Shown here: piece after piece, positions 29,555 through 45,518 of the stretch
Numbering within the stretch: the first letter of the stretch is position 1
Layout: each line of letters begins with the position of its first letter
Virus record (IMG/VR): IMGVR_UViG_2522125155_000001
Coordinates: 36,650 to 100,649 of that record
Source of the DNA: a virus
Taxonomy: Duplodnaviria; Caudoviricetes
Length of the DNA stretch: 64,000 bases
Reading direction: 5' to 3' (one strand)
Position numbers and translations under genes: made by a program
Notes under the pieces: model-generated
Database searches by the model: none
What the model saw: the letters and a program-made list of their open reading frames with translations, nothing else
Told to the model about the DNA's origin: nothing

Positions 29555-29585
29555 CAACAACCGTCTCGTCCGTCACCCTTGTCAC

Positions 29586-31298: not shown

Positions 31299-31323
31299 GC
31301 CGCCCTTAGGATGGGCTAACAGA

Positions 31324-31360: not shown

Positions 31361-31366
31361 ACCTAT

Positions 31367-32278
31367 TCAGCCGACGAGCCGCCGGAGGAGACTGCGTCGC
31401 TGCTGCTGTACCGGGATCGGCTGGGTCGGGAGGGACCCGGGCACCCTCGCGTCCGGACGGGGGATCTCCGGGGTCCAGAAGGCCTGCATCTGCACCGGCC
31501 GGTCACCCACCGTCGCGGCGTACGCCCGGCCCTTGATCGGTGCTCCGTCCTCGCCCGTGGGGAGCGGCTCCAGACGGGTGCGCCGACCGAACATCATGCC
31601 GAGCCCGTCGTCGTCCATGTTGCCGAGCGCGACGCGCATGCCGAGGTTCTGGCGGGCCTCCGTCGAGAGCCACGAGGCATCCGCCTGCTGGGAGATGAGG
31701 ACGACGCTGACCTTCGCCTCACCACCGAGCCGGAGGATGGACCTAATCTGCTCGATGCACGGGTGCTCCGTGCCGACCGGCCGCACCGGTGACTTCACGG
31801 CCTTCGCCCGGGCTAGTTCCCGGGGCTTCACGACCGTATTCCAGTGCGTCTTGGTCAGTTCGTAGAGCAGTCGACCCTCATCGACCACGAGCACGAGCCG
31901 GTTGAGGTCCTCGGCACGAGCGCCCTGCTCCAGCGCGTCGTAGCGCTCCATCATGCGGCGCTCGACCCAGCCGATCTTGTGGGAGACGTCGTCGAGGTCA
32001 CGCGAGGTGGCCCGGCCGAGCACGCCCGGGAGGCTCGCCACGTCGACCAGCGCGCTGCGCTTGGGGTCGATGAGGACGATGTCCGCACCCCGCTCGCTCA
32101 GGCCCTTGATGACCGTGCGGACGAGCGAGGTCTTGCCCGTGCGCGTGCGGCCCGTGAGGAGCATGTGCGGCTCGACGTCGGGGTTCCACAGCAGCATGCC
32201 GGTCTCGGTCAGCCCCAGCGGGATGGACGTGTGGACGAAGCCCGCCGGGATCTCGGCGAAGGTGGGGATCCTGCTCAT
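31367..32278 (-). CDS. FtsK/SpoIIIE-family ATPase without membrane anchor
   Basis: PHMLLTGRTRTGKTS, LIDPK, LVVDEG, ISQQ, RQNLGMRVALG, KGRA. Confidence 0.88.
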   Translation of the reverse strand: MSRIPTFAEIPAGFVHTSIPLGLTETGMLLWNPDVEPHMLLTGRTRTGKTSLVRTVIKGLSERGADIVLIDPKRSALVDVASLPGVLGRATSRDLDDVSHKIGWVERRMMERYDALEQGARAEDLNRLVLVVDEGRLLYELTKTHWNTVVKPRELARAKAVKSPVRPVGTEHPCIEQIRSILRLGGEAKVSVVLISQQADASWLSTEARQNLGMRVALGNMDDDGLGMMFGRRTRLEPLPTGEDGAPIKGRAYAATVGDRPVQMQAFWTPEIPRPDARVPGSLPTQPIPVQQQRRSLLRRLVG

Positions 32279-32595
32279 GCCCACACCCCCGGGAAGAGCG
32301 CGTTGATCGCGTCAACGAGGGCCTCGTCGGTGATCGTGTAGGCGGCGGTGAAGCGCGAGCCCCGACCGTTGGAGAAGACCGGGAAGCCGTTCTTCCGGAA
32401 CACCGAGTCGGCGATCCAGTGCGGCTCGTCGTCCCAGCGCGACAGGTGCAGCACCGTGCCGTCCTTGTCGACGACGGCGACCTCGGAGATGGGCTGGATG
32501 TCCGTGGCGAAGACGCCTCGGTTGTCCGTGCCGCGCTTCGCGTCGCGGAGGGTGAAGACTCCGCCGTTCGTGGCGGTGACGATGACCGGGTCCAT
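32275..32595 (-). CDS. Hypothetical protein
   Basis: CCAACCGACCCAACAAGGAG leader on - strand; ATGA coupling to FtsK-like gene. Confidence 0.75.
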   Translation of the reverse strand: MDPVIVTATNGGVFTLRDAKRGTDNRGVFATDIQPISEVAVVDKDGTVLHLSRWDDEPHWIADSVFRKNGFPVFSNGRGSRFTAAYTITDEALVDAINALFPGVWA

Positions 32596-32658
32596 GGTGA
32601 CTCCTTGTTGGGTCGGTTGGTGGAGACACCAGTGTGGGGCATGGATCCGAATGTCGCA

Positions 32659-32713
32659 AGTCAAGTACTTCAGCGGTTCGGCTTGACAGAGGCTCAGAAG
32701 GTCTGCGCATACT
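32659..32713 (+). promoter_or_regulatory. Cassette promoter P1 (degenerate box), back-to-back with a leftward promoter
   Basis: TTGACA 32683, 19-nt spacer ending GTCTGCG, CATACT. Confidence 0.75.
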
Positions 32714-32751
32714 GTGGGGACACACCGACCGGCTCCCCGAAAGGACCACCC

Positions 32752-32928
32752 ATGACCACTGCTCAGATCTCCCGCATGACGCCCCGCCAGAAGCGCGTGG
32801 TTCGCCACTCGCTCGACGTCTTCGTCGTCGCGATGCTGGGCCTCGGCATCTGGCTCGCCTCCGGCGTCCACGAGGTCCGTCCCGTCCCGGCCCACTCGAC
32901 CACCGTGGACTCCGGCGTCCACGTCTGA
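32752..32928 (+). CDS. Small membrane protein
   Basis: AAAGGA SD; TM helix. Confidence 0.65.
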   Translation: MTTAQISRMTPRQKRVVRHSLDVFVVAMLGLGIWLASGVHEVRPVPAHSTTVDSGVHV

Positions 32929-32968
32929 CCCGCACCCCAACCCAACCGACCCACGAAGGAGTCCCACC

Positions 32969-33283
32969 ATGGCCATCCGCACCACTGACGCCCCCGCCCT
33001 CGTCGCCTACTTCAACGTCTTCGTCCCCTACCGCTCGGCCGACAGCGCCGAGGACGCGCAGCGCATCGTCAACCGGTACCTGTACACCGGCTTCATGACC
33101 ACGACGGTCGTGCAGTCCGAGTCCGACCTCGACGAGCCCTTCGACTCCTACAAGGTGCACGTCCGCTACGCCGACCACATCAGCACCGGCGAGGGCCGCA
33201 TCCAGCAGCAGCGCGACCGCCTCTCCTCCGGGCTGTACGCCTCGTCGGAGCCCGTCCTCTTCCGCCGGGACGACAACGCCTGA
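32969..33283 (+). CDS. Hypothetical protein
   Basis: Conserved leader plus GAAGGAG. Confidence 0.75.
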   Translation: MAIRTTDAPALVAYFNVFVPYRSADSAEDAQRIVNRYLYTGFMTTTVVQSESDLDEPFDSYKVHVRYADHISTGEGRIQQQRDRLSSGLYASSEPVLFRRDDNA

Positions 33284-33334
33284 CAAGCACTTCGGCGGGT
33301 CGGGTTGACAGCCCGGCCCGCCATGCCCCACACT
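33281..33334 (+). promoter_or_regulatory. Cassette promoter P2
   Basis: TGACAAGCACTTCG; TTGACA 33305 in hairpin loop; 18 nt; CACACT. Confidence 0.85.
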
Positions 33335-33372
33335 GAAGCCTCAACCCCACCCGACCCACGAAGGAGTCACAC

Positions 33373-33636
33373 ATGGCACAGCGAGTCCCCACCACGGCAG
33401 CCGACCCCGAGGGCCCCGCCGGTCGCTTCATCGAGCGCCACGGCATCGAGAAGTACCGCCGCGACTACGAGCGCGGCTGGCGCGCGGCCTACGGGCTCGA
33501 CGCGGCTGACAACGACGGGCGCTCCGGCTCGGACGCGTGGATGGACGGCTACCTCGACCGCGCGTCGCGGGAGAAGTGGCACCTGCTCCGCTGCGCGAAC
33601 CACGGCAACGAGACCGGCGGCTGCGGAGTCGCCTGA
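33373..33636 (+). CDS. Hypothetical protein
   Basis: GAAGGAG SD; YERGW / WMDGY repeats. Confidence 0.75.
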   Translation: MAQRVPTTAADPEGPAGRFIERHGIEKYRRDYERGWRAAYGLDAADNDGRSGSDAWMDGYLDRASREKWHLLRCANHGNETGGCGVA

Positions 33637-33688
33637 CAAGCAGTTCGGCGGACGGGCTTGACACACCCGTCCGTCGTCTGCGCATAAT
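33634..33688 (+). promoter_or_regulatory. Cassette promoter P3
   Basis: TGACAAGCAGTTCG; TTGACA 33658 in hairpin loop; 19 nt; CATAAT. Confidence 0.85.
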
Positions 33689-33725
33689 GGTGTCGCACCC
33701 CCACCCGGCCCATGAAGGAGCCCCC

Positions 33726-34193
33726 ATGATCACCGCTTTCGGCAAGACGTACGCAGACACCCTCGCGGCTACCGCCCGGATCGCTGTTCTCCACTCGCTG
33801 AACGAGACGTGGGGCGAGAGTGACGACCGCGTCACCGAGATCAACGCGCTCCGCGAGGGCATCGCCATCTGGGAGGCCGCGCAGGCCGAGGGCATGACCG
33901 AGGAGCCCGCCGAGGTGTGGACCGTCGCGAAGAACGAGTACGAGGTCCCCTGCGAGCACCCGCTCTGCGAGCAACTGCACCAGCGCTTCATGGTCGAGGA
34001 GAAGTGCTCCGGCCTCATCCAGACCGCGAACGTGTCGGTCTGGCGCGAGTGGACGGAGCGCTACCACAACCGCACGGTCTCCGAGTGGGTCATCCTCCAC
34101 AACGGTGAGCGCGACGACCTCGCCGGGCGGTTCGACGCCTTCGACACCAAGCGTGACGCCCTCGCCGCCCTCACCCGTGCGGGGCTGCTGTGA
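33726..34193 (+). CDS. Hypothetical protein
   Basis: GAAGGAG SD. Confidence 0.75.
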   Translation: MITAFGKTYADTLAATARIAVLHSLNETWGESDDRVTEINALREGIAIWEAAQAEGMTEEPAEVWTVAKNEYEVPCEHPLCEQLHQRFMVEEKCSGLIQTANVSVWREWTERYHNRTVSEWVILHNGERDDLAGRFDAFDTKRDALAALTRAGLL

Positions 34194-34654
34194 ACGTCAC
34201 GGTGTCCGAGAAGGCCTTCTACGCCATGGAGCGCCGGGTGGACCGCTGGCTGGAGCAGGAGGGTCCTGTGCGGACGTTCGGGGCGGAGTGGTACCCGGAG
34301 CCGCTCGTGCGTTTCTCTGACGTCCCCGAAGTCCAGCCGTACGTCGACAAGGTGCTGGCCCTCGTAGGCTGTGACAGGCCCATCCGGGTGCGTCGTCGCC
34401 GGGGGAGCGCAGCCGCTCACTACGACGACGGCGTCATCGCCATCCCCTCGCGGCACAACGGCGGCGCGTACTTCCTGCGGGAAGACACCGCGCTGCACGA
34501 GATCGCCCACCACCTCACCCGGGGCGACGGACACGGTGCCCGCTTCGCCCGCGCATACGTCGACCTGCTCGCTGCCACCGGTCACCCGGTGCTCGCGCGC
34601 ATGACGGAGATCGCCTGCTTCGAGGCGGGGCTCCCCGTCGCCAAGAACCGCTGA
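34190..34654 (+). CDS. HEXXH metallopeptidase-like protein (TIGR04338/Rv0185-like)
   Basis: VRRRRGSAAAHY, LHEIAHHL....HG.RF...Y. Confidence 0.8.
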   Translation: MNVTVSEKAFYAMERRVDRWLEQEGPVRTFGAEWYPEPLVRFSDVPEVQPYVDKVLALVGCDRPIRVRRRRGSAAAHYDDGVIAIPSRHNGGAYFLREDTALHEIAHHLTRGDGHGARFARAYVDLLAATGHPVLARMTEIACFEAGLPVAKNR

Positions 34655-34706
34655 CAACCACTTCGCCGTTTCGACTTGACAGCCCCCGAGCGCGTCTGCG
34701 CATAAT
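34652..34706 (+). promoter_or_regulatory. Cassette promoter P4
   Basis: TGACAACCACTTCG; TTGACA 34676; 19 nt; CATAAT. Confidence 0.85.
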
Positions 34707-34743
34707 GGGGGCACACACCAACCGACCCTTGAAGGAGTCACCT

Positions 34744-35679
34744 GTGTCTGACCACCTCGACCTCATCGCCAAGATCCTCGCCAAGGCGGAGCGCACCAAC
34801 CACGAGTCCGAGCGCGACATGCTCTTCTCCCGGGCCCAGACGCTCGCCTCGCGCCACAGCATCGACCTCGCCCTCGCCCGCCAGCACACGGCCAAGGCCG
34901 AGCAGCGCGAGCAGCCGGAGGAGCGCACCGTCGTCATCGGTGCCTCCCGGACCAAGGGCCTCGCCCGGCTCGTGCGCCTCTTCGTCAACATCGCGGACAT
35001 CAACGACGTCAAGTGCCTCATCGCGGGCGACAGCACCGTGGTGTACGCCTACGGCTTCCCGTCCGACATCGAGGTCGTCGAGGCCCTCTACGCCTCGCTC
35101 TCGGTCCAGATGGTCCACGCCGCAGACCGCTACATCCGCTCCGGTGAGCACAAGTCCGAGATGGTCAGGAAGCCCGGCCACTACAAGTGGGTCACCTGCT
35201 CCGAGGATGACCTCTACGGCGTGGAGCGGTTTAACCCCACGACCGGCGGGTGGACCTACCGCAAGCAGGTCTGGGTCGACGGTGAGGAGAAGCCCATCAG
35301 CGGCCACACCGCCCGCCAGAACTTCTACGTCGGCTTCGTCAACCGGATCACCGCGCGCCTGCGTGCGGCCCACAACGAGGCCGTGAAGGACGCTGAGACC
35401 GAGGAGCGCGGCCCGGTGGCAGAGATCGCCGCTGCGCCCCTCCAGAGCGCCCCTGAGACGCCCAACCTGCCCACCTCCGTGGCCCTCGCCCTCGTCGAGA
35501 AGCAGACCGCTGTCGACGAGTTCTACGAGGCCGAGAAGAAGCGCCAGAAGGTCCGTGGCTCGTGGGGTGGAGAGCGCCGCTCGAACCGCAACAGCACCGT
35601 GTCCCACGGAGCCCGCAAGGCCGGTGACCGTGCCGGTGCCAACGCCCACCTGTCCTCCTCCAAGCAGATCGGAAACTGA
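34744..35679 (+). CDS. DUF2786-domain protein
   Basis: LDLIAKILAKAERT..E.E......AQTL..RHSID; GFPSDIE.VE.LY.SL..QM; F..GF. Confidence 0.82.
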   Translation: MSDHLDLIAKILAKAERTNHESERDMLFSRAQTLASRHSIDLALARQHTAKAEQREQPEERTVVIGASRTKGLARLVRLFVNIADINDVKCLIAGDSTVVYAYGFPSDIEVVEALYASLSVQMVHAADRYIRSGEHKSEMVRKPGHYKWVTCSEDDLYGVERFNPTTGGWTYRKQVWVDGEEKPISGHTARQNFYVGFVNRITARLRAAHNEAVKDAETEERGPVAEIAAAPLQSAPETPNLPTSVALALVEKQTAVDEFYEAEKKRQKVRGSWGGERRSNRNSTVSHGARKAGDRAGANAHLSSSKQIGN

Positions 35680-35681
35680 CC

Positions 35682-35936
35682 ATGATGAACCGAGCCGAGT
35701 ACGAGGCCGTCGCCTCCGGGATCAACGAGGCCGAGGGGGACCGGGAGACCAAGGTCACCATCGCGCTGGAGATCGCCACCAACCTCTGCGCCACGAACGA
35801 CCGCTTCGACCCCGTGCGCTTCCTGCAGCAGACCGGGCTGGCGCTCTCGGCCGACGAGATCGCCGAGTACAGCCACACGCTGCTGCTCCGCACCCGCACG
35901 GGCGTCGGTGCCGTCCGGGCCGACAGGAGAGGATGA
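35682..35936 (+). CDS. Hypothetical protein
   Basis: YEAVA...N.RFD..RFL pattern common in small phage proteins. Confidence 0.7.
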   Translation: MMNRAEYEAVASGINEAEGDRETKVTIALEIATNLCATNDRFDPVRFLQQTGLALSADEIAEYSHTLLLRTRTGVGAVRADRRG

Positions 35937-36187
35937 CCCACATGGACATCAGGACCACCACCACCATCACGCTCGACAAGGCCGAGCAGGTCACCTACGA
36001 GCGCGACAACGTGACGTTCGCGGTCAAGGTCATCATGCTGCACGACGGCGACGTCGAGCGCCCCCGGATCCTCTGTATCCGCGTGTACCGCAACGGCACC
36101 CGGACGGGGAACGCTCTGCCCCGCTCGTTCGGTGAACTGCCCGCAGAGGCCGCAGAGGCGGTGCGCGCGATCATCCGAGCGGTCTGA
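35933..36187 (+). CDS. Hypothetical protein
   Basis: AGGAG SD, ATGA coupling. Confidence 0.7.
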   Translation: MTHMDIRTTTTITLDKAEQVTYERDNVTFAVKVIMLHDGDVERPRILCIRVYRNGTRTGNALPRSFGELPAEAAEAVRAIIRAV

Positions 36188-36238
36188 CAAGCGGTCCGGC
36201 GTATCGACTTGACACGCCGGTACGCCGGGCCTCACACT
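36185..36238 (+). promoter_or_regulatory. Cassette promoter P5
   Basis: TGACAAGCGGTCCG; TTGACA 36209 in hairpin loop; 18 nt; CACACT. Confidence 0.82.
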
Positions 36239-36278
36239 GGCCTCACCGCACCAACCGACCCCCGAAGGAGTCAGCAGC

Positions 36279-36572
36279 ATGAGCGAGATCTACGTCGACA
36301 AGGACGGCCAGAAGTGGCGCACCCCGACCAAGGAGGAACTGGCCAAGGGCCACGCCGTCCGAGAGGCCGTGGAGAGCCTGCTGGAGTCGTGGGCCCCCAA
36401 CTACATGGAGTCCGGCCGCGTCTCCTCCTACGACGAGTGGATCGAGCGGGTCGAGGGGCTGGAGTTTCCGACCGAGCCCGACACCAAGATCGAACTCGGC
36501 TCGGACACGAGCGAGCACCCGTACACCACCATCAAGCGCATCGCCAAGGCCGTCGCGGCCGACCTCCGCTGA
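36279..36572 (+). CDS. Hypothetical acidic protein
   Basis: GAAGGAG SD. Confidence 0.75.
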   Translation: MSEIYVDKDGQKWRTPTKEELAKGHAVREAVESLLESWAPNYMESGRVSSYDEWIERVEGLEFPTEPDTKIELGSDTSEHPYTTIKRIAKAVAADLR

Positions 36573-36607
36573 ACCCCCACCCATCCCAGCCCGAGAAGGA
36601 GCCCCCC

Positions 36608-36841
36608 ATGGCCAAGCACATCGAGTACACGAAGACCATCGAGAAGGTCGAGCGCTTGCGCTCGTCGACCAACGGCAACCCCCGCTGGCTCGTGACGTTC
36701 ACGGACGGCGCGACGGCGAAGACCCAGCGCGACTCGTCGGTCGGCTACAGCATCGACAACCGGACCAACCTCGGCGTCCCGGTGCTCGTGAAGGCGACAC
36801 CCGCCGGAGAGATCTGGGGCGTCGAGCCCGTCGAGCCGTGA
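36608..36841 (+). CDS. Hypothetical protein (OB-fold-like)
   Basis: GAAGGAG SD; RLRSSTNGNPRW. Confidence 0.72.
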   Translation: MAKHIEYTKTIEKVERLRSSTNGNPRWLVTFTDGATAKTQRDSSVGYSIDNRTNLGVPVLVKATPAGEIWGVEPVEP

Positions 36842-37014
36842 GCGACACCTGCCCGCACGTCTGGCGCGTGTCGGACTGGACCCGCAGCCCCTCCACGGGG
36901 CTGTGGGTTCATGCCGACCCCGGCTGCATGCGACCGTCGCCGTACGCCGTCCCTCGCGAGCCCACGGAGCGCCCTCGTCGCCGCGTGGTGAGGGAGTCCT
37001 CCGGCGCTAGGTGA
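36838..37014 (+). CDS. Small hypothetical protein (not in ORF track)
   Basis: GTGA coupling; 58 codons. Confidence 0.4.
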   Translation: MSDTCPHVWRVSDWTRSPSTGLWVHADPGCMRPSPYAVPREPTERPRRRVVRESSGAR

Positions 37015-37077
37015 TTCCCTCCTCGCGCGTGTCAACCGGGACAATGAGACCGATTGACACGACGAGAGGAACACCTC

Positions 37078-37488
37078 ATGAGCCGCTTCATCCACACCCT
37101 CCCAGCCCTCGGCCTCGTCGGCGCTGTCGCCGCCGGTCTCACGGGCGTCCCGCACGACGCTGGAGCCCCAGACGCCGACCCGAGGTCCCACGCGCCCTAC
37201 ACCCAGCAGGAGGCGCTCACGCGGACGTACAAGGCCGCTGACGACATGCTGAGCGCGCAGGTGCACGGCTTCGAGAAGAGCGACGGGCTGAAGTGCTACC
37301 CGCCCCTGAAGGGCCCCAAGGACGCGAACTACACCACGATGCTCGTGCGGAACCGGAAGACCACCGGTGACGGCAAGCGCCAGTTCAACACCGGCGTGGT
37401 GCGCAAGACCTCGTTCCAGCAGGGCTGGGGAGACGTGCTGGAGCGCAAGGTCGCCGACCCCGTCGCATGGTGCACACCCAAGGGGTGA
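37078..37488 (+). CDS. Secreted/membrane-anchored hypothetical protein
   Basis: GAGGA SD; signal-peptide-like N-terminus; two Cys. Confidence 0.7.
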   Translation: MSRFIHTLPALGLVGAVAAGLTGVPHDAGAPDADPRSHAPYTQQEALTRTYKAADDMLSAQVHGFEKSDGLKCYPPLKGPKDANYTTMLVRNRKTTGDGKRQFNTGVVRKTSFQQGWGDVLERKVADPVAWCTPKG

Positions 37489-37540
37489 CAACCAATTCGG
37501 CGGATGGACTTGACACCCCCATCCGCCGTCTGCGCATAAT
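37486..37540 (+). promoter_or_regulatory. Cassette promoter P6
   Basis: TGACAACCAATTCG; TTGACA 37510 within perfect 10-bp hairpin; 19 nt; CATAAT. Confidence 0.85.
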
Positions 37541-37578
37541 GGTGCCTCGCCCCCAACCGACCCATGAAGGAGTCCACC

Positions 37579-38253
37579 GTGACCGAGCAGCAGACCTACC
37601 CCACGCCCCTCGCCGACGCCGCCCGCGCCCTGCGCGAAGAGCACGACGCCAAGCGTGCCGAGTTCAAGGCCGAGCGCATCGCGGCCCTCTCCCGGAGCAT
37701 GACCAAGGAGGCGGCTGTCGACCTCGCCGTCGAGAAGTACATCGACGCCCCGCGCTCGTCGGTGTCGAAGGCCATGGCCATCGAGGAGATCGCTGACGGC
37801 GACTGGGAGGACACCCCGCTCGCGAAGCAGATGCGCAAGGCGAACGACGAGGCCCACCGCGAGTCCAAGGTCATCAGCCGCGTCGAGAACCGCGACCAGT
37901 CCGTGGAGTTCCGCCAGAAGCAGATGATGGAGGTCATGGCCAAGCCGACCCTCCGCTACAACAGCCGTGGAATCGTCGAGGCCGCGCTCGACCTGCAGAC
38001 CGCGTTCCTCGCCTCGCTGTGGTGGGAGAAGGTCGGCAACTGGATGACGCCCGAGGGTGAGGCCGAGCCGCTCAGCCCGCTGGACGCCGTTGCCCGGGTC
38101 CGTGAGGAGGCGACGACGTTCGCCCTCAACCCGCACCACAACCGCCTGCTCAGCCGCTCCACGAGCCTCGTGGCCAACATGACCGAGGACCTGCAGCGCA
38201 TCGCCGCCACGGACTTCCTCGAAGAGACCGACAGGATCGTCCGGGGCTGGTAG
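37579..38253 (+). CDS. Hypothetical helical protein
   Basis: GAAGGAG SD before GTG. Confidence 0.75.
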   Translation: MTEQQTYPTPLADAARALREEHDAKRAEFKAERIAALSRSMTKEAAVDLAVEKYIDAPRSSVSKAMAIEEIADGDWEDTPLAKQMRKANDEAHRESKVISRVENRDQSVEFRQKQMMEVMAKPTLRYNSRGIVEAALDLQTAFLASLWWEKVGNWMTPEGEAEPLSPLDAVARVREEATTFALNPHHNRLLSRSTSLVANMTEDLQRIAATDFLEETDRIVRGW

Positions 38254-38260
38254 CCCTCAG

Positions 38261-38307
38261 CCCTCGCCCCGACGTAGGTCGGCACCGGTGTCACGGCCGA
38301 GCGAGGG
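38261..38307 (+). ncRNA. Three-way-junction structured element, copy 1
   Basis: 39-nt core identical at 40567-40605; closing stem shows compensatory change. Confidence 0.6.
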
Positions 38308-38347
38308 TACGCAGACCCAACAACCCGACCCGAGAAGGAGTCTCACC

Positions 38348-38716
38348 ATGTCCGCCAAGAACCTCACCGACCAGCAGGCCCTCGACAACGCCCGCACCCT
38401 CGTCGACAACCTCCGCACCATCCGGCGGGACATGCTCCGCCGTCTCGACGACTTCACCCTCTACGTCGAGATGATCGCGGAGGACGTGGAGAAGGCTCAG
38501 CAGGGCGCAGAGGACGCGCGGAACATGCGCGTCTACTCCGCCACCAACTTCATCCGCCGGACCATGGAGAAGGTCGACGACATCACCAACATGCCCACCG
38601 GTGGCACCGACGCGATGCACGTGCGGGAGTTCCGCCACAACGCCTACGAGGCGCTCTCCGGCGAGGCCCTCGAACTGCCCTTCCGCCTCACCCGCGCTGG
38701 TGGCCACGAGGGCTGA
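38348..38716 (+). CDS. Hypothetical protein
   Basis: GAAGGAG SD. Confidence 0.75.
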   Translation: MSAKNLTDQQALDNARTLVDNLRTIRRDMLRRLDDFTLYVEMIAEDVEKAQQGAEDARNMRVYSATNFIRRTMEKVDDITNMPTGGTDAMHVREFRHNAYEALSGEALELPFRLTRAGGHEG

Positions 38717-38768
38717 CAACCACTTCGCGCGTTCGACTTGACGCGAGCCCCCAGCGTCTGCGCATAAT
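38714..38768 (+). promoter_or_regulatory. Cassette promoter P7
   Basis: TGACAACCACTTCG; TTGACG 38738; 19 nt; CATAAT. Confidence 0.85.
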
Positions 38769-38806
38769 GGGGGCACACACCGACCCGGCCCACGAAGGAG
38801 CCCCGC

Positions 38807-39724
38807 ATGAACCTCACCACCGCCACCCCCGTCGAGATCGACACCGAGATCGCCCGCATCTGGGACGCGCGGGCCACCCTCGGCGCGACGGTCGCCCACC
38901 TCACCAACTCGCTGCACCGCGCGGCCAAGGACGAGCAGGTGCGCGTCCACACCGGCCGCTGGGGCTCCTACAAGACGCGCTGGGGCATGGACCTCGACGC
39001 CGCCATCGAGCGCGTCGAGGAGATCGCTGCGGGCGACGGCGAGGTCTGGGAGGTCCGCGCTGCTGTCAAGGCCCTCGACGAGTGGAACGCCGCCATGGCG
39101 CAGGCGACAGCGCTGAAGGCCGAGGAGGCCCCGCTGCACGCCGAGTTCAAGCGCCGTGGCGGCTGGACCCGCGCCTTCCTCGCGACGTCGTCCAACGGCC
39201 ACATCCACTCCAGCCGCGAGTGCTCGACCTGCTACGAGACCACCCAGTTCTTCTGGTTCGTCGACCTCTCGGGCCACGACGAGGCCGAGATCGTCACCAA
39301 GGCTGGCAGCGACGCTTGCACGGTCTGCTACCCGTCCGCCCCGGTCAACGACCTGAAGCGCCCCCGCTCGATCTTCAGCGACGACGAGAAGGCCGCGCAG
39401 GCTGCTCGCGAGGAGCGCGCTGCTGCCAAGGCTGCCAAGGACGCCCTGAAGGTGACGGTCGAGGGCATGGGCCAGAACTACCGGGACGGCGTCCACCGCC
39501 CGAAGACCTACAACACCGAGCGCGCCGTCGAACTGGAGATCAGCAGCAACCTCACGTCGCTCACGCGCTCCCCGAACCACCCGTGGGCTGCCCAGTGGAA
39601 GACCAACGTCCAGAACTGCGCGCAGGCCCTCGCAGACCGCCGTGGGACGACCGTGGAGGCCATCGTGGAGCCGATCAAGGCCCGCGTCGAGAAGAAGGTC
39701 GCCAAGGAGAACAGCGGCTGGTGA
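38807..39724 (+). CDS. Hypothetical protein with Zn-binding motif
   Basis: GWTRAFL...GHIHSS.ECSTC...ACTVCYPSAP. Confidence 0.8.
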   Translation: MNLTTATPVEIDTEIARIWDARATLGATVAHLTNSLHRAAKDEQVRVHTGRWGSYKTRWGMDLDAAIERVEEIAAGDGEVWEVRAAVKALDEWNAAMAQATALKAEEAPLHAEFKRRGGWTRAFLATSSNGHIHSSRECSTCYETTQFFWFVDLSGHDEAEIVTKAGSDACTVCYPSAPVNDLKRPRSIFSDDEKAAQAAREERAAAKAAKDALKVTVEGMGQNYRDGVHRPKTYNTERAVELEISSNLTSLTRSPNHPWAAQWKTNVQNCAQALADRRGTTVEAIVEPIKARVEKKVAKENSGW

Positions 39725-39775
39725 CAAGCACTTCGGTGGGGCGGCTTGACGGTCGCCCCACCGAGGCCTCATACT
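39722..39775 (+). promoter_or_regulatory. Cassette promoter P8
   Basis: TGACAAGCACTTCG; TTGACG 39746 is the loop of a 13-bp stem; 18 nt; CATACT. Confidence 0.85.
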
Positions 39776-39809
39776 CGGAGCACCCACCCGGCCCACGAAG
39801 GAGCCTCCA

Positions 39810-40088
39810 GTGCGACCCAGCAGCATGAAGAACCACGTCGGCGAGACCAGCGCCTTCCGCGCCACGAAGCGCACCACGCGCATCCACGAGGCCCACGCCC
39901 TCATCGCCGAGCGCACGGCCGAGATCGAGGCCCTGCTGGCCGCTCTGGACGTCGAGCCGGACCGGAAGGCCCGCCGGGTGCTGACGCTCCGTCTGCAGGG
40001 CACACGCCGCAACCTCGCGTCGTGGGAGGCCTACGTGGCCAAGGGCAGCGAGCGCGAGGGTCGGGCGGTCATGGGCAGGGCTGCCTGA
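39810..40088 (+). CDS. Hypothetical basic protein
   Basis: GAAGGAG SD before GTG. Confidence 0.7.
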   Translation: MRPSSMKNHVGETSAFRATKRTTRIHEAHALIAERTAEIEALLAALDVEPDRKARRVLTLRLQGTRRNLASWEAYVAKGSEREGRAVMGRAA

Positions 40089-40096
40089 CGACACGC

Positions 40097-40151
40097 CGAC
40101 AACCACTTCGGCTGAATGAGTTGACAGCCCCCCACATCGTCTGCGCATAAT
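40097..40151 (+). promoter_or_regulatory. Cassette promoter P9
   Basis: CGACAACCACTTCG; TTGACA 40121; 19 nt; CATAAT. Confidence 0.85.
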
Positions 40152-40190
40152 GGACCCACACCAACCGACCGGCCCACGAAGGAGCCCCAC

Positions 40191-40553
40191 ATGAACCACA
40201 ACTACGCCACCCACACCACCGCCCTCCCGCGCGCTGCCGCTGACGACGCCCCCCAGTACAACGCGGTCTCGTGGGCCTTCGCCAAGGGCCGCAAGGAGAT
40301 CACCAAGGCGGGCCTCCCCATCACGGCCGGGCTCGTGCTCGTCGCCTTCGCCCAGCACGCCGAGGCCGCGCTCGCCTCGCCTGAGGGCTACGACCAGACG
40401 CAGTTCACCGACATGACGGCCCTCACCGGCCTGAGCATCTCGACGATCCGCACCCACGCGAAGTCGCTCGCCCGGCTCGGTCTCCTGCGCGAGCGGTCCT
40501 TCGGCTACCGCCTCCCGGAGGTCGCCTTCAACGCGGAGTGGCTCGCTTCCTGA
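40191..40553 (+). CDS. Winged-HTH DNA-binding protein
   Basis: FTDMTALTGLSISTIRTHAKSLARLGLL. Confidence 0.75.
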   Translation: MNHNYATHTTALPRAAADDAPQYNAVSWAFAKGRKEITKAGLPITAGLVLVAFAQHAEAALASPEGYDQTQFTDMTALTGLSISTIRTHAKSLARLGLLRERSFGYRLPEVAFNAEWLAS

Positions 40554-40561
40554 GCCCCACC

Positions 40562-40611
40562 GCCCCCGCCCCGACGTAGGTCGGCACCGGTGTCACGGCC
40601 GAGCGGGAGGC
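40562..40611 (+). ncRNA. Three-way-junction structured element, copy 2
   Basis: Matches 38261-38307. Confidence 0.6.
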
Positions 40612-40651
40612 ACTCAGTCCCAACCAAACCCGACCCATGAAGGAGTCACAC

Positions 40652-40969
40652 ATGTTCCTCTCCGTCCCCGCCATCTCCGCCCCCACTGCCGCCGGTCGCA
40701 ACGAGCGCCGTATGGCCGAGGTCCGCCAGAGCATCGACGACGCGCTGGCTCAGGCCAACGCCCTCGCCGACATCATCCGGGATGTGCGCCTCGACCTCGC
40801 GGCCAACGCGGACGCTCTCGTCGCCGACATGGACGAGCGTCGTGGCCCGGTCAACATGACCCAGCACTTCGCCAACAAGGCCGACGACGTGAACCGGCAG
40901 ATTCTGAAGGTTCAGGAGGACATGCTCCGCGTCCTCGCCCTCGCCGCTGGCTTCGAGGTCACGGCCTGA
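40652..40969 (+). CDS. Hypothetical coiled-coil protein
   Basis: GAAGGAG SD. Confidence 0.72.
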   Translation: MFLSVPAISAPTAAGRNERRMAEVRQSIDDALAQANALADIIRDVRLDLAANADALVADMDERRGPVNMTQHFANKADDVNRQILKVQEDMLRVLALAAGFEVTA

Positions 40970-41226
40970 TGGGCGCGTTCCGGATCACCTTCAACGTCAT
41001 GGTCGACGACCGCGAGAAGGCCCGTGACGCCGCCACGCACGCCATGCACGAGGCGGGCGAGGAGATCGAGATCGTCCGCTTCGGAACCCCGCGTCTGGCC
41101 CCCTCGGTCTACGGCGTGACCCTCTGGTTCCGCGCAGCCGACGCCAACGTCGCGGCCGACTACCTGAAGCGCCTCCAGCGCCTCCCCGGGCAGCCCCCGA
41201 GCGACGCCTACACCCTGCACCTCTGA
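40969..41226 (+). CDS. Hypothetical protein
   Basis: TGATG coupling. Confidence 0.7.
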   Translation: MGAFRITFNVMVDDREKARDAATHAMHEAGEEIEIVRFGTPRLAPSVYGVTLWFRAADANVAADYLKRLQRLPGQPPSDAYTLHL

Positions 41227-41375
41227 GCCACCCCGACGCCCGTTTGGACCACGGCACAACGGCCTACAGGGCCACCTCGCACGACACACCGGCTACCGAG
41301 CACCAAGAGGATCTCGGGCAGGTGGGAGGGCGTCACAGACCCGCACACACAACCGACCCCCAGAAGGAGATCACC

Positions 41376-41783
41376 ATGTCCCAGTTCCCCACCCAGCACT
41401 TCACCCCGACGAGCACGCAGGACAGCGCGAACGCGTGGGACCGCCTCGCCGACGGCGTCATCGGCCACGTCGGCACCACCACGACGCCGGAGCGCGCGCG
41501 TGCGGCCTTCTCCGCCCTCGACGAGGACGACAAGCGCCTGCTGCTCCACATCCTCAACAACGTGCCCGCGATGAAGACCCAGCACCTCAGCACGGCCCTC
41601 AGGTCGACCATGCAGCACACCTCCCGGCCCCACGCCGTCGCGTGGAAGGACGAGGTCGCCATCGCTGCCCAGCGGCTGCAGGACGCCCTCACGCTGGTGC
41701 CGAGCAACGTGGCCCACTACGCCGTCGAGCAGGCCCGCCCGCTGCTCCGTGTGCTCGCCAAGATCAACCTCCCGGGAGCCTGA
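41376..41783 (+). CDS. Hypothetical protein
   Basis: GAAGGAG SD. Confidence 0.72.
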   Translation: MSQFPTQHFTPTSTQDSANAWDRLADGVIGHVGTTTTPERARAAFSALDEDDKRLLLHILNNVPAMKTQHLSTALRSTMQHTSRPHAVAWKDEVAIAAQRLQDALTLVPSNVAHYAVEQARPLLRVLAKINLPGA

Positions 41784-41972
41784 GTGGAGACGCCCACCTT
41801 CCGCACCTCGTGCAAGGGCTGCTCGGCAGCAGCGTCCGGGCTCTTCGAGCAGACCGTCCCATGGTGGGTCGAGAACCACGCCGCCGTCGCTCACCCGCAC
41901 TGGGACCCCCGGGTCGTCGAGCGCAACGTGACGGTCGAGCGCGACACGCTGACAACCAGTTCGCGCGTTTGA
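41784..41972 (+). CDS. Small CxxC/His protein
   Basis: GGAG SD; CKGC...H....H. Confidence 0.55.
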   Translation: METPTFRTSCKGCSAAASGLFEQTVPWWVENHAAVAHPHWDPRVVERNVTVERDTLTTSSRV

Positions 41973-42003
41973 GTTGACGGGTGGTGGGGCCAGACCCCAT
42001 ACT
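41950..42003 (+). promoter_or_regulatory. Cassette promoter P10
   Basis: TGACAACCAGTTCG; TTGACG 41974; 18 nt; CATACT overlapping loop of 15-bp stem. Confidence 0.85.
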
Positions 42004-42041
42004 GGTCTCACCACCCCAACCGGCCCACGAAGGAGCCCCAG

Positions 42042-43193
42042 ATGAGCATTCGCCTCACGCACGCAGAGTTCGCCGCCACGCAGGACAAGGTCGCCAAGAT
42101 CAACACCCGCGCCGCCAAGCGTGGCTTCACCGGCCGCTTCGAGGTCGTCGGCACGCCCGTCACGGTCACGAAGGTCGACGAGTCCACCGGCTTCGAGATC
42201 CGCCTCGCCTACATGGAGACCACCATCACGGGCGAGGCCCCCAAGTACAACGGCTGGACCTTCCTCGCCACGCTCGACTGGGACAGCGTCGCCGACGGCC
42301 TCATCGTCCGCGCCTTCTCGGAGGACGTGCAGGTCGACCGCGACGCGCTCGTCAAGGGCCACTGCGACCACTGTGGCGTCCAGCGCTACCGGAAGAACAC
42401 CTACGTCGTCGTCAACGAGGCGGGCGAGCAGAAGCAGGTCGGCTCCTCGTGCATCAAGGACTTCCTCGGCCACGACGCCACCGTCGTCTTCATCACCTCC
42501 AGCGAGGTCTCCGAGGACGCCATGGGCGGCGGCTCGTTCGGTGACCCGGTCGCCGACACGCTGAACGTCCTCGCCATCGCGTGGGCAGCCACCCGCGCCT
42601 TCGGCTACGTCCCCGCCTCGGCCTTCTCCGGCTCCACCAAGGAGGTCGTCTCCGGCATCCTCTGGGGTCGCTCGAAGATGGACAACGAGGCCCGTGCCGC
42701 CATCACGGAGTACGTCGAGGGCTCGGACGCCGCTGCCGTCGAGGTGCGCGACTTCATCCTCTCCGACGCCTTCTCCGGCACCAGCGACTACGTCCTCAAC
42801 CTGAAGGCCATCGTGGGCTCCGAGACGGTCACGCCGAAGAACATCGGCTTCCTCGTCTCCGCTCCGCAGGCCTTCGCCCGGGCCATGGAGAAGACGCTCA
42901 TCCGCGAGCGCGAGAAGGACGCCACGGCTGACAGCGTCCACGTCGGCACGGTCGGCGACAAGGTCGAGATCGAGGCCACCATCACGCGCATCAACTTCAT
43001 CGAGTCCAACTGGGGCGTCACGGTGCTCTACACCCTCCTCGCCACGGACGGGAACGTCTACAAGTGGTTCGCCTCCCGCGAGGCCCTCGGCGAGAAGCAG
43101 GGCGTCGAGGTGAAGGTCAAGGGCACGATCAAGGACCACGACGAGTACAACGGCACCAAGAGCACGGTGCTCACCCGCTGCAAGGCCCTCTGA
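42042..43193 (+). CDS. Hypothetical protein with Zn motif and C-terminal OB-fold-like domain
   Basis: CDHCG..RYR..TYVV...QVGSSCIKDF; HVGTVGDK...KGTIK.H.EY.G.K.TVLTRCK. Confidence 0.8.
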   Translation: MSIRLTHAEFAATQDKVAKINTRAAKRGFTGRFEVVGTPVTVTKVDESTGFEIRLAYMETTITGEAPKYNGWTFLATLDWDSVADGLIVRAFSEDVQVDRDALVKGHCDHCGVQRYRKNTYVVVNEAGEQKQVGSSCIKDFLGHDATVVFITSSEVSEDAMGGGSFGDPVADTLNVLAIAWAATRAFGYVPASAFSGSTKEVVSGILWGRSKMDNEARAAITEYVEGSDAAAVEVRDFILSDAFSGTSDYVLNLKAIVGSETVTPKNIGFLVSAPQAFARAMEKTLIREREKDATADSVHVGTVGDKVEIEATITRINFIESNWGVTVLYTLLATDGNVYKWFASREALGEKQGVEVKVKGTIKDHDEYNGTKSTVLTRCKAL

Positions 43194-43207
43194 GCCCACA
43201 GAACGAC

Positions 43208-43233
43208 CCGGGAGGGGCTCCGGCCCCTCCCGG
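43208..43233 (+). terminator. GC-rich hairpin
   Basis: CCGGGAGGGGC-tccg-GCCCCTCCCGG perfect 11-bp stem after stop. Confidence 0.6.
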
Positions 43234-43276
43234 CCTCTCACAGCCCCGTACACAGCCCACGAAGGAGCACACAGCC

Positions 43277-43531
43277 ATGAACGAGCACCTCACCGAGCAG
43301 ACCGTGAAGACCCTGCTGGCCAAGCGCCTCCTGCGCCACAGCAAGCGCTGCGACGAGACGCGCGAGAGCCTGAAGCACGCCTACAGCCCCGAGGACATCT
43401 ACCAGCACAGCCGCCGTCTCTCCGAACGCCTCTCGGCCATCGACGAACTGCAGGAGGTGTGGGAGCGCCTCTTCGGCAACACCCCCACCCTCGCCGAGGT
43501 CCACCAGCACGCCACCCACGAGGAGAACTGA
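43277..43531 (+). CDS. Hypothetical protein
   Basis: CCCACGAAGGAG leader. Confidence 0.72.
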   Translation: MNEHLTEQTVKTLLAKRLLRHSKRCDETRESLKHAYSPEDIYQHSRRLSERLSAIDELQEVWERLFGNTPTLAEVHQHATHEEN

Positions 43532-43532
43532 C

Positions 43533-43817
43533 ATGCAGCCCCACGAGATCGCCGACGCCGCTGACAAGGCCCGCGTCTACCCCGGACCCAAGGACCGCGA
43601 GGCGATGGCCGCGTACCGCCAGCAGGGGTACGACATCCGCGACCAGTTCTCGGCCGACCTCTCCCGCGAGTACCTGCCGAACGAAGCCCGCCACGCCGCC
43701 ACGAAGATCTTCGACAAGGCGTGGAGCGACGGCCACAGCGAGGGCTACCACCGGGTCGAGGAGATCTACGAGGAGATCGCGGACATCGTCCGTGTCGTGG
43801 TCGACGGGCTGCGCTGA
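43533..43817 (+). CDS. Hypothetical protein
   Basis: GAGGAG SD; AW..GHS.GY pattern. Confidence 0.72.
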   Translation: MQPHEIADAADKARVYPGPKDREAMAAYRQQGYDIRDQFSADLSREYLPNEARHAATKIFDKAWSDGHSEGYHRVEEIYEEIADIVRVVVDGLR

Positions 43818-43868
43818 CAACCACTTCGGCGGTTCGGCTTGACGCGCCATGGGTCTAGGCCCCACACT
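43815..43868 (+). promoter_or_regulatory. Cassette promoter P11 (drives leaderless gene)
   Basis: TGACAACCACTTCG; TTGACG 43839; 18 nt; CACACT; ATG at +7 within 13-bp stem. Confidence 0.85.
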
Positions 43869-43874
43869 GGACCC

Positions 43875-44105
43875 ATGGCCACCAACAGCACCCACTCCGT
43901 CCGCATCTCCCGCATGAGCATCGAGCCCGGCATGAAGATCAGCCTCCCCGAGTACGACGTCCGCCCGTACGTCGTCACCGTCGGAAGCGTCGAGCACACC
44001 GCCGACAGCACCCGGATCGTCGCGGCCCGGTCCGGCGTCATCATCAACCTCAAGCCCGGCGAGCCCGTCGAGGTGTTCCCGAAGCCCGGCGAGATCTGGG
44101 CCTGA
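43875..44105 (+). CDS. Hypothetical beta-rich protein, leaderless
   Basis: ATG at predicted TSS of P11. Confidence 0.7.
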   Translation: MATNSTHSVRISRMSIEPGMKISLPEYDVRPYVVTVGSVEHTADSTRIVAARSGVIINLKPGEPVEVFPKPGEIWA

Positions 44106-44155
44106 ACGCCACCACTCCCACCACCCACCAACCCGCCCGAGAAGGAGCACACACC

Positions 44156-44533
44156 ATGGGACACAGCACCGCATCCGACGCCGCCAACCTCGCCCGCGTC
44201 GGCGACATCAGCCTCCAGCGCGCTGTCGCGATGAACCTGCAGAGCAACCACTACCCGCCCATCCCGACCGCCTACGTCGAACCGGTCACCGAGGCCATCG
44301 CAGCCGCGCAGGACGACGACGCTGACCGGCTCATCTGCATCAACGGCGTCGAGAGCACGGGCATGCTGCCCCGGCAGGCGGAGACGGACGAGGACGGCAT
44401 CATCACCGTCCCGGCGCGCGTGCTGCTGGACATCACGCACTCGTGGGTCTTCGTCGAGCAGGACGACGAGCCCTACGGCGACGAGGACGAGGACTGGGAC
44501 CTCGACGGCCCGGCGCACGTGCGGGAGGCCTGA
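44156..44533 (+). CDS. Hypothetical acidic protein
   Basis: GAAGGAG SD; LQSNHYPPIP motif. Confidence 0.75.
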   Translation: MGHSTASDAANLARVGDISLQRAVAMNLQSNHYPPIPTAYVEPVTEAIAAAQDDDADRLICINGVESTGMLPRQAETDEDGIITVPARVLLDITHSWVFVEQDDEPYGDEDEDWDLDGPAHVREA

Positions 44534-44534
44534 G

Positions 44535-44855
44535 ATGACGCGCATGGTGATCGGCGACGACCTCTCCCCCCACTTCATCGACGACGGCCCTCAGCGTGAC
44601 CGCTGCGACTTCTGTGGCCGCGTCGCCGTCGACCACGACTACGGCATGGTCATCGAGGGCCCCACCGGCCGCAGCAGCGAGGACGACGAGGGGCAGGACG
44701 GCTGGGGCCACGTCCACTGCATCGAGCAGGCCGGGCTCACCGTCGTCCACACCGACGACTGGTCCGGCAAGGACGATGGGATCCACTACGAGGATGTCCG
44801 CGAGGTCGAGCCCGACTTCGACTACGACGAGTTCTACGGCCGGAAGGGGCGCTGA
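44535..44855 (+). CDS. Hypothetical acidic protein with CxxC
   Basis: GGAGG SD; CDFCG...HVHC. Confidence 0.7.
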   Translation: MTRMVIGDDLSPHFIDDGPQRDRCDFCGRVAVDHDYGMVIEGPTGRSSEDDEGQDGWGHVHCIEQAGLTVVHTDDWSGKDDGIHYEDVREVEPDFDYDEFYGRKGR

Positions 44856-44857
44856 CC

Positions 44858-45097
44858 ATGGCACTGCGCGAGTGGGGCATCTGGACCGAGAACGACGGCG
44901 GCTTCATCGAGGCCCAGATCTACAGCACCGAGCAGGGCGAGGCCCGCCTCGTCGAGTACTTCGAGGAGGACCCCGACAACGTGGGTGACCTCTCGCTCGT
45001 CGAGATCTGCCCCGACCACGAGCAGCAGCCCAAGGACGCGTGTGAGGAGTGCGCAGCCGAAGAGACCGACGACGACGACGAGGAAGAGGAGGACTGA
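44858..45097 (+). CDS. Small acidic Zn-binding protein
   Basis: CPDHE......CEEC; acidic tail. Confidence 0.7.
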   Translation: MALREWGIWTENDGGFIEAQIYSTEQGEARLVEYFEEDPDNVGDLSLVEICPDHEQQPKDACEECAAEETDDDDEEEED

Positions 45098-45099
45098 GC

Positions 45100-45282
45100 A
45101 TGCTGGTCTGGACCGCCCTGAGCATGGCCCACGGCATCGCGAGCAACCCCGAGCACCACAACTACCCGCTCGACGACATGGTGGCCGCACACGAGCGTCT
45201 GGAGCGCTCGGAGAAGAACGACCACTACCAAGAGGAGATCGAGACCCTCGCCCGCGCCATCCGACTGACCGAGGAGGTCTGA
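45100..45282 (+). CDS. Hypothetical protein
   Basis: GGAGG SD. Confidence 0.6.
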   Translation: MLVWTALSMAHGIASNPEHHNYPLDDMVAAHERLERSEKNDHYQEEIETLARAIRLTEEV

Positions 45283-45284
45283 CC

Positions 45285-45470
45285 ATGGCTGAGACCACCA
45301 CCTGCCGCAAATGCGGGAAGCGCATCAGGTTCGAGAGCCCACACACGGGCTGGGTGGAGACGCTCTCCGGCGATGAGGGCGGCAACTACGACCTCTGCAT
45401 GAGCAACCAGCCGGACCTCGTCCACGTGCCCAAGCGCGCGACTCACGAGTTCGCCGCATACGACGACTGA
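45285..45470 (+). CDS. Small Zn-ribbon-like protein
   Basis: GGAGG SD; CRKCG...C......H. Confidence 0.65.
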   Translation: MAETTTCRKCGKRIRFESPHTGWVETLSGDEGGNYDLCMSNQPDLVHVPKRATHEFAAYDD

Positions 45471-45480
45471 CCACCACACA

Positions 45481-45518
45481 GCGAGAGCCCCCAGCCGAAT
45501 TGGCTAGGGGCTCTTCGC
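45481..45518 (+). terminator. Hairpin ending the small-gene array
   Basis: GAGCCCC(C)AGCC-gaatt-GGCTAGGGGCTC. Confidence 0.65.

Follow-up and report, generated by a model that had tools for sequence, protein, structure and literature searches.

Probable gene-end hairpins of variable sequence overlap the next predicted promoter in repeated intergenic cassettes of a prophage-like element

In cluster K mycobacteriophages, repeated intergenic elements known as ESAS combine a SigA-like promoter and an inverted repeat with a conserved start-associated sequence (SAS), according to the accessible text of the papers describing them (Pope et al. 2011, PMC3203893; PMC11373665). A role as a binding site for a regulator is proposed in the available portion of the Adephagia paper (PMC11373665). 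Another described class of elements, the hairpins without a U-tract at gene ends of high-GC Actinobacteria, is debated: they may terminate transcription or only stabilise RNA ends. Ingham, Hunter and Smith are said to have described, in 1995, early-region terminators of phage phiC31 that have no poly-U tails. Here we describe hairpins nested in putative promoters in a stretch of 64,000 nucleotides (positions 36,650 to 100,649 of IMG/VR virus record IMGVR_UViG_2522125155_000001), referred to as the window and numbered from its first letter. The 64-kb window corresponds to C1:865512-929511 within a 4.9-Mb genome. It contained 11 near-identical intergenic cassettes (P1 to P11), all on the + strand and with rigid spacing. 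The order of their parts is a stop codon within TGACAASC, 16 nucleotides of free sequence (N16), TTGAC(A/G), a spacer of 18 or 19 nt, a -10 hexamer, a C-rich leader ending in GAAGGAG, and the start codon.

In seven cassettes a hairpin surrounds one of the two promoter hexamers. These stems had been listed in an earlier note made from the sequence alone, and all seven were found at the positions given there. The stem lies around the -35 in P2 (cassette 33281-33372; stem 33294-33304/33312-33322, with TTGAC at 33305 in the loop and TGA 33281 as the stop codon of the upstream open reading frame, ORF), P3 (cassette 33634-33725; stem 33647-33656/33666-33675), P5 (cassette 36185-36278; stem 36196-36206/36218-36228), P6 (cassette 37486-37578; perfect 10-bp stem 37498-37507/37519-37528) and P8 (cassette 39722-39809; stem 39733-39745/39752-39764), where the loop is, as the note had said, exactly TTGACG. 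It lies around the -10 in P10 (cassette 41950-42041; stem 41979-41993/42002-42016) and P11 (cassette 43815-43879; stem 43846-43858/43867-43879, -10 CACACT at 43863-43868), the latter having no GAAGGAG leader. The stems are 10-16 bp long, with loops of 6-11 nt and folding energies (dG) of -18 to -29 kcal/mol. Seven of their 83 stem positions are not Watson-Crick pairs, and all seven are G.T or T.G on the + strand, again as noted before.

Short stems of the form GCCCCC/GGGGGC were present around the -10 of P4 (cassette 34652-34743; stem 34682-34687/34707-34712, -10 CATAAT at 34701-34706) and P7 (cassette 38714-38806; stem 38747-38752/38769-38774). P9 (40097-40190) consists of promoter and leader with no hairpin. 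P1 (32663-32752; TTGAC at 32683, CATACT at 32708) has a degenerate upstream motif, lies in a divergent intergenic region and likewise has no hairpin, its longest stem being 7 bp. A cassette tends to have one hairpin or short stem, either at the -35 (five strong ones) or at the -10 (two strong, two short), and not both. When the cassettes were aligned, the arms fell in variable columns and the invariant hexamers in the loops. The stem sequences had been called unrelated; the arms are indeed unit-specific, except that P2, P3 and P6 have their outer GGCGG/CCGCC pairs in common, since the 5' arm begins where the cassette is conserved.

The longest contiguous + strand stem (Watson-Crick and G.T pairs) in each 75-nt unit was compared with 1000 dinucleotide shuffles, a control that the note had named. 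Stems of the native length were reached in 0-7 of the 1000 shuffles: in none for P2 (13 bp), P5 (14 bp), P8 (16 bp), P10 (15 bp) and P11 (13 bp), in four for P6 (10 bp) and in seven for P3 (11 bp). The ordinary units P1, P7 (7-bp stem) and P9 were equalled by 432, 196 and 282 shuffles per 1000, respectively. RNAfold z-scores were -2.0 to -3.0 for the seven strong units, -1.42 for P4, -1.73 for P7 and +0.91 for P9. No Rfam family was found for the hairpins in an E-value scan of 30-50 kb, which gave one sub-threshold match, outside the cassettes.

The raw minimum free energy was always lower on the - strand, which is G-/T-rich, and z-scores and stem lengths were therefore compared instead. Seen from the - strand, with C.A pairs allowed, the stems measured 6 bp (P2), 9 bp (P3), 10 bp (P5), 11 bp (P6), 11 bp (P8), 6 bp (P10) and 10 bp (P11). 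The + strand stem was longer in six of the seven units. The claim that only the top strand is selected thus describes the trend, but P6 keeps it from being absolute. A strand-neutral scan with all mismatches equally penalised reported 23 hairpins in the window, with 11 G.T-type, two C.A-type and two other mismatches. Adding the promoter stems below the scan threshold gave 16 G.T against two C.A (P = 0.00066); once the C-/A-rich composition of the + strand was allowed for, the bias towards G.T had P = 2e-5.

We then asked how specifically the two arms of each hairpin belong together, by building chimeras from the 5' half of one cassette and the 3' half of a different one and comparing their folding energy with that of the native unit. 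This arm swap stands in for covariation counts over the paralogues, since the pairing of P8 is shifted by one column relative to that of the other cassettes. For the -35 hairpins of P2, P3, P5 and P8, none of 30-32 chimeras reached the native energy, and the same was true of P2, P5 and P8 of the close relative described below. Four of 32 chimeras did so for P6, owing to the outer GGCGG/CCGCC pairs that it shares with P2 and P3. For the hairpins at the -10, native energy was reached by none of 36 chimeras in P10 and in P11, by two of 36 in P4 and by five of 36 in P7.

The sole close relative was one IMG/VR contig (L050), 80-87% identical over window positions 26983-45603. The P2 hairpin is identical in it. 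In the P8 orthologue, three of 14 pairs are changed on both sides (U-A to C-G, G-C to A-U and C-G to U-A), and one further change turns G.U into G-C. The P5 orthologue shows one U-A to U.G change, which pairs only on the + strand, and one lost pair. The P4 stem is kept with no covariation, two stand-alone hairpins (see below) differ from their counterparts in the loops only, and P3 and P6 have no counterpart. The arm swaps, the compensatory changes in the relative and the strand bias of the mismatches together support the claim of the earlier note that structure rather than sequence is kept, and that it is kept on the top strand.

Further relatives were sought widely. Megablast against GenBank phages gave no match and distant blastn only short gene matches; none was present in 400 genomes of the family, nor in the GTDB species genomes, searched by protein and by cassette pattern. 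Blastn with one cassette gave no match, and the sole metagenome match was an identical piece of 1360 nt. Pieces with 90-95% similarity were present in one sequencing run (X4). Single IMG/VR matches to the leader motif and to the class-A -10 region were set aside as unrelated: they lay on lower-GC contigs and numbered about what chance would give, by a rough estimate with no control. Three unrelated contigs (L052, L054 and L055; 55-58% GC) have one class-A core match each, of the form TTGACA, 12-13 nt, (G)TCTGCGCATAATGG; these matches reach beyond the pattern searched for, though their count is about that of chance by the rough estimate.

The cassettes themselves look like promoters with a standard leader. 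Two spacer classes were distinguished: an 18-nt class (P2, P5, P8, P10 and P11) with CACACT or CATACT as the -10, and a 19-nt class (P1, P3, P4, P6, P7 and P9) with CATAAT or CATACT preceded by GTCTGCG. The pattern TTGAC-N19/20-CAYAMT occurred at 11 sites in the window, all on the + strand, with 0.05 expected by chance, and GACAASC was placed exactly 16 nt 5' of TTGAC at ten of the 11 (0 expected). The cassette motifs had no further occurrence elsewhere in the 4.9-Mb genome. All 11 cassettes have -35 and -10 hexamers, and their spacers of 18 or 19 nt are long compared with the typical length of about 17 nt; a generic sigma-A consensus scan that allowed spacers of 16-18 nt reported only P8 and P10. 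Judged from their motifs, the cassettes would be active promoters for host sigma-A-type polymerase, since the genome has 45 sigma-70-family gene matches and none of them lies in C1:830-932 kb.

The leader CCGRCCCAYGAAGGAG was found in 14 copies in the window (0.39 expected). Thirteen of them, between 32946 and 43267, are on the + strand directly before start codons, and one is on the - strand at 32601-32616. Its terminal GAAGGAG is a strong Shine-Dalgarno sequence. Leader copies with no promoter occur at 32946, 40630 and 43252, and variants near 36590, 38325 and 44135; the leader behaves as a start-associated sequence in its own right. A structured element, an outer stem around two small hairpins, is present in two copies (38258-38312 and 40560-40614) after stop codons and before leader-only cassettes; the copies differ by a T-A to C-G change in the outer stem. 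In P11, which has no Shine-Dalgarno leader, an in-frame ATG lies at 43875, 7 nt past the -10 (region 43863-43877), so that the mRNA of its gene is probably leaderless.

At the other end of the cassette, nine cassettes have the TGA of the upstream motif, and in eight of them it serves as the stop codon of the ORF before the cassette. The exception is P10, where the upstream ORF stops 20 nt later, at TGA 41970-41972. The motif, TGACAASCA(S)TTCG (33281-43830), is asymmetric, has one orientation, is intergenic and is restricted to this block of genes; possible roles are those of an operator, a stoperator-like site or an element upstream of the promoter. Two other inverted repeats, at 29527-29556 (inside an ORF) and 37028-37061, have arms that contain TGTCAA/TTGACA, with no -10 at promoter spacing.

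The positions of the hairpins relative to the genes point to the upstream transcript. In six of the seven cases, the stem starts 6-10 nt past the stop codon of the upstream gene (P11: 28 nt). In P10, stop codon and hairpin are both displaced downstream together, the TGA again lying 6 nt 5' of the stem. Because transcription from a cassette's own promoter is expected to start downstream of the stem, the stem can be part of an RNA only if that RNA arrives from the upstream gene. Other genes of the window, with no promoter behind them, are also followed by hairpins of this style, which stand alone and show the same G.T bias, at 10416, 30174, 31324, 43208, 45484, 54263, 62518 and 63109. The one at 43208-43233 (+ strand, 11 bp) begins 14 nt past the stop codon of ORF 42042-43193 and is identical in the relative; behind it comes a cassette that has the leader but no promoter. 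The one at 45484-45514 (+ strand) lies 13 nt past the last gene of the block, has the 9-nt tail TCGCGTTAT and differs from the relative in the loop only. P1 faces a - strand promoter-like site (32596-32662), where a CACACT -10 and a copy of the leader precede the - strand ORF that begins at 32596; this site is conserved in the relative. This divergent region would be beyond the reach of read-through, and both of its promoters are hairpin-free.

Several functions had been offered in the note, among them read-through mRNA, an RNA decoy and folded single-stranded DNA or cruciforms. Terminating or stabilising read-through mRNA fits best among these, because the stems are close to stop codons, promoterless genes also have hairpins, and the divergent cassette has none. 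On sequence grounds, then, the hairpins would act as RNA. We hypothesize that they are U-less gene-end RNA hairpins (terminator, insulator or 3'-end protector) that have been compressed into the next promoter, and we hold this explanation to be probable. A transcript arriving from the upstream gene would fold the hairpin a few nucleotides past its stop codon. The hairpin might then stop RNA polymerase and so shield the next promoter from read-through; alternatively, it might block 3' exonucleases and so give the upstream mRNA a defined, stable end.

Why the two elements should overlap is suggested by the space available. With only about 90 nt between genes, hairpin and promoter would have to share bases, about 60 nt of them. 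The arms would occupy positions that the promoter leaves free in N16, in the spacer and directly past the -10. The hexamers cannot vary, and a loop needs no partner; this would place the hexamers in the loops and give the caged appearance. The earlier note had spoken of hairpins that cage the hexamer, but no action on the hexamer was seen, and its place in the loop is more likely due to its being invariable. As the hairpin may be at the -35 or at the -10, its position relative to the promoter seems not to be important, and a mechanism tied to one promoter element is disfavoured.

Compared with a canonical intrinsic terminator, there is a GC-rich hairpin after a co-directional gene, and the U-tract of 7-9 nt is missing. 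The features of U-less actinobacterial gene-end hairpins (GC-rich stem, no U tail, position after the stop codon and selection on the transcribed strand) are all present. Only 1% of 244 strong hairpins of the host have at least 5 T in the 9-nt tail, and U-less hairpins are thus the local norm. The stand-alone hairpins have on average 3.25 T in these 9 nt, against 1.29 in the embedded ones. The larger loops and T-poorer tails of the embedded hairpins are as promoter overlap would predict. The region was also present as assembled contigs in two metatranscriptome runs, which are silent on transcript ends, strand and level; the depth was an even 5x or so, the - strand gene included. Contig breaks at the hairpins occurred in a DNA run as well and are therefore assembly effects.

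A number of observations weigh against a gene-end RNA hairpin. There is no U-tract: 0-3 T (mean 1.29) follow the stems within 9 nt. The loops of the embedded hairpins are large (mean 7.7 nt, against 5.4 nt in the stand-alone ones). According to Czyz et al. 2014 (PMC3993855), intrinsic termination by mycobacterial RNA polymerase depends on a U-tract, and the discussion of that paper notes that gene-end structures do not necessarily terminate and may instead stabilise RNAs or define processed ends. The short stems of P4 and P7, which the earlier note had counted with the others, do exist but are individually not above chance. P9 has an upstream gene and yet no hairpin, and the contrast with divergent promoters (hairpins in 0 of 2, against 7 of 10) has too few cases for a test. 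In the relative, the -35 is degenerate at the sites that correspond to P10 and P11, and the hairpin is weakened (P10) or lost (P11). Covariation, the first check proposed in the note, was seen as the three double changes in P8, but it comes from a single orthologous pair, only one close relative having been found.

Two further points of this kind come from a distant relative (G401), a 118-kb IMG/VR phage that shares a 383-aa protein at 45% identity. It has nine TTGAC-N18-20-TANNNT sites, against two for a control pattern, and at most of these a C-run/G-run inverted repeat lies inside the promoter, around the -35 or in the spacer. Two of the repeats belong to promoters that diverge from each other, so that read-through RNA is not expected there, and one is 10 nt past a canonical 18-bp terminator with a T-rich tail (contig L058: caged -35 at 12864-12903, T-tailed terminator at 12811-12853). 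These repeats resemble each other in sequence, which makes a binding protein plausible in G401. The phage (L058, L072-L078) has inverted terminal repeats and a promoter family of its own, consisting of CTCTTGAC, the C-run/G-run inverted repeat and TANNNT. Other phage contigs with the 383-aa protein have dense short repeats of their own: one 9-mer occurs 20 times in 17 kb in L063, and L060 and L069 have a common motif repeated eight times.

The selection on structure and on the top strand would also be expected if the RNA hairpins were sites of processing or recognition. A double-strand-specific RNase might cut there to release monocistronic mRNAs, or an antiterminator-like phage protein might bind the UUGAC(A/G) loop. 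The loops have a constant content on stems of varying sequence, and the block is rich in small unassigned proteins that could include such a factor. The constancy of the loop is, however, explained by its being the -35 hexamer, and with the hairpin around the -10 in four cassettes there is no loop common to all. The stand-alone hairpins have unrelated loops, and there was no match to a known RNA family. Stems of 10-16 bp are short for a typical RNase III site. We therefore consider such sites unlikely.

It is also conceivable, though very unlikely in our view, that the hairpin lies inside the promoter on purpose: polymerase releasing the upstream transcript could stay on the DNA and re-initiate at the next -35/-10. 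The 11 cassettes in series would then work as a relay that couples the termination of one early gene to the firing of the next. In a variant, the nascent hairpin, or a hairpin of the top DNA strand, would gate the promoter in step with upstream transcription. Sliding after termination and re-initiation by bacterial RNA polymerase are reported in the accessible text of two papers (PMC6978380, PMC10372574).

A DNA-level role, in which a cruciform or top-strand hairpin removes the -35 or -10 from the duplex upon supercoiling or in single-stranded replication or injection intermediates, is kept alive by the G401 repeats inside promoters, including the divergent pair described above. In the window, the repeats are centred on promoter elements, four of the five -35 hairpins have the same pairing register about TTGAC, and in P5 and P6 neither strand folds better than the other. 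A cruciform, however, also needs the bottom strand, on which all seven G.T mismatches become C.A. A hairpin at either the -35 or the -10 is not explained by any single promoter mechanism, the divergent promoters of the window have no hairpins, and hairpins of the same kind stand alone away from promoters. GC-rich stems with loops of 6-11 nt moreover extrude poorly, and we regard this role as highly improbable.

Least probable of all is that the repeats have no function and are by-products of cassette spread or repair (for example, quasi-palindromes perfected by template switching, or what is left of small palindromic insertions). In its favour, a change in one arm can be copied into the other by templated mutation with no selection, the cassettes are clearly paralogous and located at mosaic boundaries between the two phages, and the relative has not kept the hairpins at the -10. 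Against it, seven independent arm pairs are far above shuffles, the strand bias of the mismatches runs against composition, the position just past stop codons is consistent, and two stand-alone hairpins have changed in the loop only.

The region around the cassettes has a GC content of 65-68% across C1 at about 830-932 kb, compared with 72-73% in the host, and nearly all ORFs there are on the + strand. The region of about 100 kb was treated as a large prophage-like element of an actinobacterium, because of its phage-type genes and the matches of its DNA polymerase to Streptomyces phages. The phage-type functions in the window are a DnaB-like helicase, DNA polymerase I, ribonucleotide reductase and a UvsX-like recombinase, and a Cas4-like exonuclease, a queuine-tRNA-ribosyltransferase-like protein and a polynucleotide kinase are also encoded. 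The closest matches of the DNA polymerase (45-46% identity) are from Streptomyces phages of about 113-116 kb. Neither Sigma70_r2 nor Phage_integrase had a match inside the prophage-like region; the genome has five Phage_integrase matches, and none of these tyrosine recombinases lies within C1:830-932 kb.

The small-gene block that bears the hairpins extends from 32.6 to 45.5 kb, the cassettes spanning 32.6-43.9 kb of it, and presumably consists of early genes. Fifteen of 21 tested protein segments of the block matched no family in Pfam and PHROGs. The other six matched families with no assigned function, except for a weak helix-turn-helix match and an FtsK-like ATPase on the - strand. Gene content diverges from that of the close relative (L050) in two blocks (33377-34181 and 36838-38712), and two of the four edges of these blocks fall at a cassette, one where P2 ends and one where P7 begins. 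The cassette repeats may serve as recombination points for gene shuffling.

The function of the hairpins is most likely an ordinary one, that of a gene-end RNA hairpin, and what is unusual is its compact nesting in the next promoter. No description of promoter hexamers placed systematically in the loops of gene-end hairpins was found in the open-access literature. The arrangement is a compact answer to two constraints on the same bases: the hexamers, which are fixed, go into the loop, and the arms are built from positions free to vary. Insulated promoter parts for actinobacteria could be designed on this model. For the debate on U-less hairpins, the locus offers a natural test series: seven strong and two weak U-less hairpins, two hairpin-free cassettes and stand-alone hairpins with better tails. 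They lie in one co-oriented block with near-identical promoters and leaders, which allows unusually well-controlled comparisons.

Among known systems, the early or host-takeover modules of large lytic phages such as SPO1 and T4 have tandem strong early promoters with interspersed terminators. The block in the window is like them in having many co-oriented small unassigned genes, each served by its own predicted consensus host promoter and strong ribosome-binding site (RBS). It differs in that promoter and hairpin overlap rather than alternate, and its role in the prophage is a presumed one. The hairpin promoters of phage N4 have a stem of about 5-7 bp, a 3-nt loop and a conserved sequence, and are read by the virion RNA polymerase. 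The analogy with these promoters and with integron attC sites, which the earlier note had suggested, extends to strand-specific folding of inverted repeats with structure placed over sequence, but not to the stem and loop dimensions, sequence conservation or core sites that define them. Unlike those of N4, the stems in the window are 10-16 bp long and variable in sequence, with loops of 6-11 nt. The attC core sites RYYYAAC/GTTRRRY were present in none of the seven stems, including 10-nt flanks on each side, and attC needs an integron integrase, whereas the prophage region gave no tyrosine recombinase match.

The U-less 'I-shaped' gene-end hairpins of actinobacteria are closer. As in those, the hairpins of the window are GC-rich, have no U tail and are located just past stop codons, here in the non-structural block of an actinophage. 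Unlike them, they overlap the next promoter, and a promoter hexamer forms the loop.

The closest likeness in layout is to the ESAS and SAS of cluster K: repeated intergenic cassettes in one orientation, in the non-structural half of an actinophage, with a SigA-like -35/-10, an inverted repeat and a conserved RBS-containing sequence before the start codon, some copies being leader-only. The 13-bp SAS consensus of cluster K is absent from the window (two matches at up to two mismatches, against 2.22 expected), and a different conserved leader, with 14 copies, takes its place. In the cluster K phage Anaya (L056), the ESAS arms have the same core sequence in all four copies found by the scan, whereas the arms in the window are unit-specific. 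The -35 of Anaya lies within the 5' arm, in contrast to the hexamers in loops found here. Its mismatches (one G.T, three C.A and one other) show no top-strand bias, while those of the window stems are all G.T. Anaya also has a separate GC-rich hairpin shortly upstream of four ESAS repeats (38943-38976, 39277-39304, 31870-31899 and 9676-9709), with mismatches, where present, of the T.G type; its layout is an unfused series of hairpin, promoter and SAS. Hairpin and promoter are thus separate in Anaya and fused in the window, which has a 'hairpin + promoter + leader' module of its own, is not a member of the ESAS family, and provides a contrast case for the unexplained ESAS repeats of the cluster K mycobacteriophages.

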